A DNA stretch of 64,000 bases from Escherichia phage vB_EcoM-VpaE1, in the sequence record KM657822; one strand, given 5' to 3'. The translations under genes were made by a program, and so were the position numbers. Below are positions 2,430-2,663 of the stretch, piece by piece (within the stretch, counting starts at the first letter, position 1; each line of letters starts with the position of its first letter). The notes under the pieces are model-generated. The model searched no databases. It saw only the letters and a list, made by a program, of their open reading frames with translations, and had not been told where the DNA came from.

Positions 2430-2458
2430 TTGACATTGAGATGTGACTACTTTATAGT
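2430..2458 (+). promoter_or_regulatory. sigma70-like promoter TTGACA-N17-TATAGT inside tRNA cluster
   Basis: Exact TTGACA at 2430-2435, 17 nt spacer, TATAGT at 2453-2458; downstream about 200 nt has no tRNA or ORF. Confidence 0.5.
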
Positions 2459-2663
2459 AACCTTAGTTTTCGTTGCGTAGCGTCTATTTTGCAAATTTAA
2501 AATAAATGCAAACGACAATGTTTTTCTGGCAGTAGCTTGATAGGCTAAACACCAGTGAGGTCTTCCAATCCCTCATCAAAGAATTTGGCGTACTAGCCCA
2601 CGGTATGATTAATAAGGTGGGCATCTTTAAGGGCTTTCTAAGAGAGAGTCTTTAAAGATTAAT

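Follow-up and report, generated by a model that had tools for sequence, protein, structure and literature searches.

Bacteria rescue stalled ribosomes and exert quality control mainly by trans-translation, a pathway on which some phages depend. Small phage RNAs are known from late leaders and tRNA operons, such as the anti-sRNAs AgvB and AsxR of lambdoid late regions and species 1 and 2 of T4. AgvB and AsxR pair with an abundant host RNA, but their targets are Hfq-dependent regulatory sRNAs and not tmRNA. To our knowledge, none of these RNAs carries a translatable template. In two-piece tmRNAs (coding piece, RF04321), the template lies on a separate RNA that is joined to the acceptor part by base pairing alone; a single gene gives rise to both, and the acceptor stem is formed by the 5′ end of the coding piece. 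According to the tmRNA database papers, mycobacteriophages and Bacillus phage G are the only phages with listed tmRNAs (PMC4131195, PMC11915505). Mycobacteriophage DS6A carries a “TLD-only” mini-tmRNA, a phage-borne partial tmRNA that is thought to disturb host trans-translation (PMC4131195, PMC11915505). Synthetic anti-ssrA oligonucleotides, used in ribosome display and cell-free translation, are antisense to tmRNA, and such tmRNA-complementary DNA oligonucleotides suppress release from stalled ribosomes in vitro (PMC3384345, which leaves the binding site on tmRNA unstated). Our literature search on phage tmRNA-like RNAs, anti-tmRNA RNAs and Felixounavirus tmRNA returned no description of the element reported here and no natural antisense partner of tmRNA.

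The window analyzed here, a 64,000-nt stretch from Escherichia phage vB_EcoM-VpaE1 (KM657822), contains the Felixounavirus tRNA cluster, in which ARAGORN finds 25 tRNAs (1080 to 5917). The original prediction, made from the letters of this stretch, described a TTGACA-N17-TATAGT promoter followed by about 200 nt of noncoding spacer, with neither a tRNA fold nor an ORF before tRNA-Arg; it proposed an internal promoter for the distal tRNAs or a small RNA, and named an Rfam scan as one check. The features of the locus are as follows.

2430..2458, plus strand: putative sigma-70-type promoter (TTGACA 2430-2435, 17-nt spacer, TATAGT 2453-2458; 11/12 consensus match)
2459-2663: spacer from the promoter to tRNA-Arg, 205 nt
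2464..2492, plus strand: 5′ antisense arm UAGUUUUCGUUGCGUAGCGUCUAUUUUGC, complementary to E. coli ssrA nt 76-107
2493..2507, plus strand: A/U-rich linker AAAUUUAAAAUAAAU, with U2503/A2504 at -5/-4, the positions of U85/A86 in E. coli tmRNA
2508..2540, plus strand: start-less tag frame GCA AAC GAC AAT GTT TTT CTG GCA GTA GCT TGA, encoding ANDNVFLAVA and a stop (resume codon GCA at 2508, stop TGA at 2538-2540)
2526..2555, plus strand: helix-5-like hairpin (CTGG 2526-2529 with CCAG 2552-2555; TAGC 2533-2536 with GCTA 2544-2547; TGA 2538-2540 in the loop)
2556..2588, plus strand: pseudoknot A (S1, TGAGG 2556-2560 with CCTCA 2571-2575; S2, CCAA 2565-2568 with TTGG 2585-2588)
2589..2622, plus strand: pseudoknot B (S1, CGTACT 2589-2594 with GGTATG 2602-2607; S2, GCCCAC 2596-2601 with GTGGGC 2617-2622; conserved loop AUUAAUAA)
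2623..2663, plus strand: element with a predicted 17-bp hairpin at 2623-2659, adjoining tRNA-Arg and without a U-tract
2664-2740: tRNA-Arg(tct), called by ARAGORN

The promoter was found as described, and it is the top-ranking promoter-like site within the first 8 kb of the window. Both hexamers and a spacing within 16-18 nt are present and conserved, with the site retained in 27 of 31 Felix-type loci and variant or cut off in the remaining four. At no more than one mismatch to TTGACA-N17-TATAAT, the 64-kb window holds three sites against 0.69 expected, and at least three were obtained in 3 of 100 shuffles. The Felix O1 genome paper had already predicted this promoter as “P45, TTGACA(17)TATAGT” (PMC3185647). 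From its sequence and conservation, the site at 2430-2458 would be expected to be active. Both ends of the RNA are placed by prediction: transcription would start at about A2465, and an RNase P cut at 2663/2664 would fix the latest possible 3′ end. A terminator scan and hairpin folding found no terminator-like site between the promoter and tRNA-Arg; because no intrinsic terminator intervenes, the promoter probably also drives the distal tRNAs, as had been proposed. The hairpin at 2623-2659 is probably a processing or stability element. Further strong sigma-70-like sites lie at 933-961, embedded in a 12-bp hairpin, and at 1024-1053, both just 5′ of the first tRNA, and two other 11/12 matches occur at 45133-45161 and 45472-45500.

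The statement that some 200 nt without a tRNA fold or ORF precede tRNA-Arg also stood. Neither ARAGORN nor the Rfam tRNA model finds a tRNA cloverleaf with an anticodon arm in 2415-2663, and the Rfam scan returned no family at its gathering score in 2459-2663. Mechanical ORFs in the spacer are all of 46 aa or fewer, and a protein gene was rejected, since the 46-aa minus-strand ORF (“unknown” or “hypothetical” in some records) is conserved neither in strand nor in frame among 54 relatives. Neither the window nor any of 34 related loci yields a tmRNA call by ARAGORN. With the Rfam tmRNA model (RF00023), whose gathering score is 47, the matches reach 14.3 and 7.6 bits and cover model positions 56-294 only; across the Rfam tmRNA models, the well-aligned portion is AUAAAUGCAAACGAYAAYGUUU. 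A one-piece tmRNA was discarded, as 2459-2663 contains no acceptor stem, T-arm, CCA or tRNA-like domain, and it is for want of a tRNA-like domain that the RNA is not a tmRNA. A permuted tmRNA (RF04321) was likewise discarded: the score of 32.5 bits, against a gathering score of 47, is owed partly to the adjacent tRNA-Ile, a genuine tRNA (63 bits) that the alignment takes as the T-arm. The 5′ end of the RNA shows no complementarity to the tRNA-Ile T-arm unit used by that alignment.

Judged by its homologs, the spacer encodes an RNA of ~160-200 nt that is conserved across unrelated enterobacterial phages. It is 99.6% identical to the spacer of Felixounavirus LF82P3 and by blastn matches 594 phage records, most of which have no annotation beneath the match and a few only “hypothetical protein”. 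The RNA occurs in Felixounavirus, Kolesnikvirus (Erwinia), Ackermannviridae (Vi01 and relatives), Jedunavirus (Klebsiella), siphoviruses, P1/P7/D6 and lambdoid prophages, and the central 100-125 nt are 72-87% identical in unrelated groups (Kolesnikvirus, Ackermannviridae, Jedunavirus, siphoviruses). Pattern scans of IMG/VR yielded 73 and 117 loci. Among 5426 complete E. coli genomes, 137 were matched by a 215-nt lambdoid query and 652 by the 53-nt arm. In the lambdoid prophages of E. coli, the RNA lies unannotated in the ~1-kb gap from the Q antiterminator gene to the holin gene. Phages P1, P7 and D6 carry a more divergent form, as do ~550 E. coli plasmids of ~95 kb. The P1 copy (NC_005856, 68886-69085; tag ANDDLMMVAA) lies in the leader of the C1-repressed ban operon, downstream of Pban and between the “dicF-like region” and trnA; the P1 annotation ends at the neighboring “dicF-like region”, leaving the RNA itself without a feature. 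Among species-representative genomes, the RNA was seen in Enterobacterales only. In more than 100 variants, the arm and the template always occur together and never apart.

The surroundings of the RNA differ between groups. The arm follows the end of a sigma-70-like promoter by 6-15 nt in Felixounavirus, Kolesnikvirus and Jedunavirus, and some Felixounaviruses (SP116-like) carry a ~90-nt stem-closed insert between promoter and RNA. In Vi01 and the lambdoid leaders, long stems resembling processing sites precede the arm.

The 3′ part of the RNA resembles the template region of tmRNA. Positions -8 to -1 of the linker read AGAUAAAU or AAAUAAAU in 91 of 99 unique relatives, and an A stands at -4 in all of them; its counterpart in tmRNA, A86, is the main determinant of the frame (PMC2481249). 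The frame that begins at the GCA resume codon has no start codon, and an in-frame stop closes its upstream side, as read directly from the sequences. It invariably comprises 10 codons and a stop, with zero indels in more than 100 variants. Whereas the E. coli tmRNA tag is ANDENYALAA, the window RNA encodes ANDNVFLAVA, and its relatives encode similarly ssrA-like peptides, including ANDEQFLAVA, ANEEMYLAVA, ANDNTFLAVA, ANDDVVLMAA, ANDDYKLAAA and the P1 tag, with AN[DE]xx[FY]LAVA as one recurring form. Changes in the conserved tag codons are mostly synonymous third-position changes that leave the peptide unaltered. For example, one Ackermannviridae lineage differs from Vi01 by GCA to GCT, AAC to AAT and AAT to AAC, keeping ANDNTFLAVA but losing an overlapping ATG in the +1 frame; since these synonymous changes retain the tag and destroy the ATG, the tag frame is the selected one. 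By this pattern of substitution, the tag template is under selection at the level of the peptide. The description of the spacer as noncoding held only in part: no ORF is conserved, but the spacer houses a tag template of 10 codons that lacks a start, together with an antisense arm directed at host tmRNA.

The template is embedded in a structure whose base pairs covary. In a 19-sequence alignment, pairing holds in 98% of the cells, and compensatory double changes affect 11 of the 24 pairs, values equaled in none of 500 shuffles; in slid controls, only 29-43% were paired. The CTGG/CCAG stem of the helix-5-like hairpin becomes CTGA/TCAG in one lineage, and the third base of the final Ala codon changes together with the base opposite it (C-G, n=10; U-A, n=6). 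Pseudoknot A is 100% paired throughout, with three double-changed pairs in S1 and two in S2. In pseudoknot B, three pairs of S1 carry double compensatory changes, and S2 was read off the alignments. Both pseudoknots are H-type and lie 3′ of the helix-5-like hairpin. P1 presents an identical architecture built from wholly different stem sequences, by direct reading CGGGG/CCCCG and GUCG/CGAC in pseudoknot A and CGCAGA/UCUGUG and UCCCCG/CGGGGA in pseudoknot B. Of the two options originally offered for the spacer, the small RNA thus gains comparative evidence that points to a conserved, covarying, structured RNA.

The 5′ arm is complementary to the corresponding region of the host tmRNA. Its target, ssrA nt 76-107, includes the A-rich linker, where U85/A86 lie, as well as the resume codon and tag codons 1-6. 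The conserved 5′ end of the RNA, AGUUUUCGUC, is perfectly complementary to nt 96-105 of E. coli ssrA (tag codons 3-6). Against the reverse complement of ssrA, the window arm scores z=5.1 with 0/200 shuffles equal; 54 representative variants score z=4.0-10.3, with 0/200 shuffles equal in 53 of them. Scores against the sense strand are at noise. In most relatives, the antisense coverage reaches ssrA nt 54-107 and also spans pseudoknot 1. The predicted duplexes, computed domain-limited because whole-molecule RNAduplex runs against ssrA yielded meaningless giant duplexes, amount to -27.1 kcal/mol and 24 bp for the window RNA (ssrA nt 76-107; 1/300 shuffles equal), -24.7 kcal/mol and 23 bp for an Erwinia phage of Kolesnikvirus (nt 79-107; 0/300) and -43 to -49 kcal/mol (to -49.3) and 37-42 bp for lambdoid, Jedunavirus and Vi01 variants (nt 54-107; 0/300). 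This shuffle test covered six variants, with 0/300 in five and 1/300 for the window RNA; P1 was scored separately (-46.3 kcal/mol, 38 bp, nt 56-106; 0/300). Such extended target complementarity, conserved among homologs (z up to 10.3, 23-42 bp), is characteristic of a trans-encoded antisense RNA. The classic anti-ssrA oligonucleotide presumably contains GTAGTTTTCGTCGTTTGCGACTA, which is almost the sequence of the phage arm.

Several observations bear on the specificity of this match. In 54 of 54 variants, the predicted pairing of the arm is stronger with host tmRNA (median -43.8) than with the template of the same RNA (-19.2), and the arm matches the host D-E-N-Y codons rather than the codons of the phage. 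Within the arm, the conserved blocks are the paired blocks, and a variable small hairpin coincides with the gap. Complementarity was measured against the tmRNAs of E. coli, Salmonella and Klebsiella only, in which the target stretch is the same save for one extra A; the retrieved Salmonella ssrA carries the E. coli tag codons. Among the mismatches of the arm to E. coli ssrA, six wobble-compatible transitions stand against seven pair-breaking ones, with a further 22 transversions that fall mostly between the paired blocks, in hosts that share one target. The mismatch pattern does not support selection for pairing, and the test is neutral. No consistent cis partner complementary to the conserved 5′ end was found within 2.5 kb. 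In Vi01 and the lambdoid leaders, the sequences show that the start of the arm can alternatively pair in cis with the upstream leader.

Like tmRNA, the RNA has a start-less frame beginning at a GCA resume codon with a conserved A 4 nt before it, an ssrA-like peptide (AND...hydrophobic-Ala-Ala), a stop codon within a helix-5-like hairpin and H-type pseudoknots thereafter. Unlike tmRNA, it measures ~160 nt, bears a 5′ arm antisense to tmRNA itself and lacks an acceptor stem, T-arm, CCA end and helix 2, so that it would be neither charged nor bound at the ribosomal A site. Its sense-strand similarity to enterobacterial ssrA is limited to GCAAACGA; as similarity to E. coli ssrA is otherwise at noise, recent capture of the host template was rejected. 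The RNA closely matches the RF04321 consensus AUAAAUGCAAACGAUAACGUUU and, like the coding piece of a two-piece tmRNA, has its template on a separate molecule. In contrast to that piece, its partner would be a complete host tmRNA, contacted through the template region. The RNA and that of DS6A are mirror images: the latter possesses a tRNA-like domain and no template, the former a template and no tRNA-like domain. Finally, anti-ssrA oligonucleotides are man-made DNA and inhibitory only, whereas the phage RNA occurs naturally and has a replacement template joined to it.

On these grounds, we regard as fairly probable, though far from settled, that the spacer encodes a bipartite phage RNA whose arm anneals to host tmRNA and interferes with trans-translation, probably while supplying a replacement template. 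Host RNA polymerase would transcribe the RNA from the promoter at 2430-2458, and its 3′ side would be trimmed, probably during processing of tRNA-Arg. The arm would then pair with host tmRNA from the linker through the resume codon to tag codon 6, and in most relatives over pseudoknot 1 as well. Annealing would mask the host resume codon and tag template and so disturb host trans-translation. Transcription, pairing in vivo and all consequences for tagging are here predictions from sequence. Against pairing, the arms of most relatives would have to invade pseudoknot 1.

What the template contributes is a separate question. Without a tRNA-like domain, the RNA would not enter the ribosome unaided; a complete template under peptide-level selection, placed 9-15 nt past the duplex, makes replacement of the host template likelier than a mere block. 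In tmRNA, the resume codon lies 12 nt 3′ of pseudoknot 1, which can be replaced by unrelated sequence (PMC2481249); the similar placement of the phage template and this replaceability modestly favor a tag swap over simple inhibition. We accordingly entertain, as a tentative proposal that may well prove wrong, that the RNA acts as a parasite-supplied coding piece and that host tmRNA-SmpB adds the phage tag in place of its own. The heteroduplex would stand in structurally for pseudoknot 1, and the phage linker with its A at -4 and the resume codon would be presented 9-15 nt past it. Stalled ribosomes would still be rescued, with AANDNVFLAVA and its relatives appended instead of AANDENYALAA. Against such a swap, the chimeric complex would be bulky, with a double set of pseudoknots, and might not traverse the ribosome; the phage tags still have hydrophobic-Ala-Ala-like ends that resemble degradation signals, so that a swap would bring no obvious gain; the wobble test was neutral; and RNase III might simply cleave a duplex of 40 bp.

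One alternative is a plain antisense RNA, which would inactivate host tmRNA by occluding its template or by RNase III cleavage, shutting off the tagging and degradation of phage proteins. The 3′ module would then go undecoded and serve stability, folding or association with the ribosome or S1. The strength of the complementarity between arm and ssrA is in keeping with this explanation, as are the inhibition of trans-translation in vitro by synthetic anti-tmRNA oligonucleotides and, by inference, duplexes of 37-42 bp that would suit RNase III. It gives no account of an invariant run of 10 sense codons ending at a stop in a hairpin loop, nor of synonymous substitutions that keep ssrA-like peptides, a universal A at -4 and the constant association of arm and template in more than 100 variants, and we consider it rather unlikely. 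Peptide-level conservation is equally unexplained if the RNA were a free decoy, a tmRNA mimic that titrates S1, SmpB, RNase R or the 30S head without pairing and whose antisense similarity is a relic of its origin, for example by inverted capture of an ssrA fragment. The tmRNA-like architecture would fit a decoy, S1 binds tmRNA (PMC1874662), and selection for pairing receives no positive evidence from the wobble test. A relic would hardly be expected, however, to keep its conserved blocks where ssrA pairs and its variable hairpin at the gap, or to retain complementarity in lineages as far apart as P1, Vi01, Felix O1 and the lambdoid prophages; a decoy appears very improbable.

It is also conceivable that the phages encode a complete but cryptic two-piece tmRNA, in which a nearby odd tRNA-like unit gives the acceptor part or tRNA-like domain. 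Candidates are window 2883-2966, 2294-2462 of the Erwinia phage locus L004 and the UGUGGUG...CACCACA units of Vi01, Jedunavirus and lambdoid loci. All phage groups examined do have a tRNA-like unit uncalled by ARAGORN no more than a few hundred nt away from the element, and some of these units terminate in GCCA. Yet by direct reading none has the G3-U70 pair, their inserts are hypervariable and show no covariation with the template pseudoknot loop, and the UGUGGUG/CACCACA unit is an ordinary tRNA-Ile in one prophage. As the 5′ arm matches host tmRNA and not the tRNA-like units, and has no complementary partner nearby (within 2.5 kb), we judge this arrangement improbable. Least credible of all is that the promoter serves only the distal tRNAs and that the 205-nt leader is functionless. 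The position inside a tRNA cluster and the lack of a terminator from the promoter to tRNA-Arg would agree with it, but the same ~160-nt element occurs in phages without nearby tRNAs (lambdoid late leaders, Jedunavirus), and its extensive compensatory covariation and conserved tag frame would have no cause. A functionless leader is contradicted by these comparative data.

Should the bipartite RNA act as proposed, it would, as far as the literature search extends, be the first known RNA regulator or hijacker of tmRNA and the first template-only relative of tmRNA. It is unannotated in the model phages P1, P7, Felix O1 and Vi01 and in the prophages and phage-plasmids of hundreds of E. coli genomes; if the arm acts, P1 and Felix O1 may block or re-program ribosome rescue. 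A genuine tag swap would mean that two functions of tmRNA can be supplied by different genomes and would offer a natural design for re-programming tagging. It could also alter which proteases and adaptors (ClpXP, SspB, ClpAP, Lon, Tsp) see tagged proteins during infection. If the RNA is an inhibitor only, it would represent a phage-evolved counterpart of the anti-ssrA oligonucleotide of biotechnologists.

The tRNA-like sequences near the element deserve a description of their own. In the window, 2883-2966, between tRNA-Arg and tRNA-Ser, holds an odd tRNA-like sequence that terminates in GCCA. Its acceptor-like stem spans 8-10 bp (AUGGGACG/CGUCCCAU), the loop of its T-arm, UUCAACU, is tmRNA-like, and its “anticodon” loop comprises 9 nt (CUUCCAACA). 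The sequence is not called by ARAGORN at default settings, has no Rfam match and folds with z=-3.1. The tRNA spacers 1250-1330, 1415-1490, 1815-1885 and 1900-2035 contain a repeated module framed by CAGAAGACC(N)TTACAGCAAA...(N)GGTCTGG, and these look like stem-closed inserts. At ~1950-2035, a T-arm and 3′ acceptor strand are followed by a 5′ acceptor strand and D-arm, as in a permuted or broken tRNA; a circularly permuted tRNA was rejected after a naive re-join went unrecognized by ARAGORN. In Erwinia phage Hena2 (L004, 2294-2462), a 169-nt tRNA-like unit uncalled by ARAGORN directly precedes the promoter and the element. At its 5′ end it reads GGGUGAUUCUG, similar to GGGGCUGAUUCUGG at the 5′ end of tmRNA, it terminates in ...GGUUCGAAUCC..AUCACUCGCCA, and it has G2-U71 rather than G3-U70.

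A tRNA-shaped scaffold also recurs beside the element, in the lambdoid late leaders L005, L010, L024 and L122 and at L002 2178-2326 and L003 2832-2957. It consists of an acceptor stem (UGUGGUG/CACCACA), a D-arm (GCGCAGGCUGAUGCGC) and a T-arm (GCCGGAGWUCAGCRCCGGC). Hypervariable inserts of 20-90 nt stand where the anticodon arm would be, and the whole resembles a natural “tRNA scaffold” showing variable RNA cargo. In prophage L072, the same frame is a normal tRNA-Ile(AAU). A kissing loop between the template pseudoknot loop and the inserts of neighboring tRNA-like units was considered and set aside, as the two do not co-vary. The four lambdoid leaders and the Felixounavirus loci L008 and L001 further contain small modules closed by a common long stem, GGTAAGRGCATTG...CAGTGCTCTTTCC, some of which hold T-arm-like hairpins. 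One module, CCCTTATGGGGCTTGGCTTAAATGCA, is common to an E. coli O26 prophage and some Felixounaviruses.
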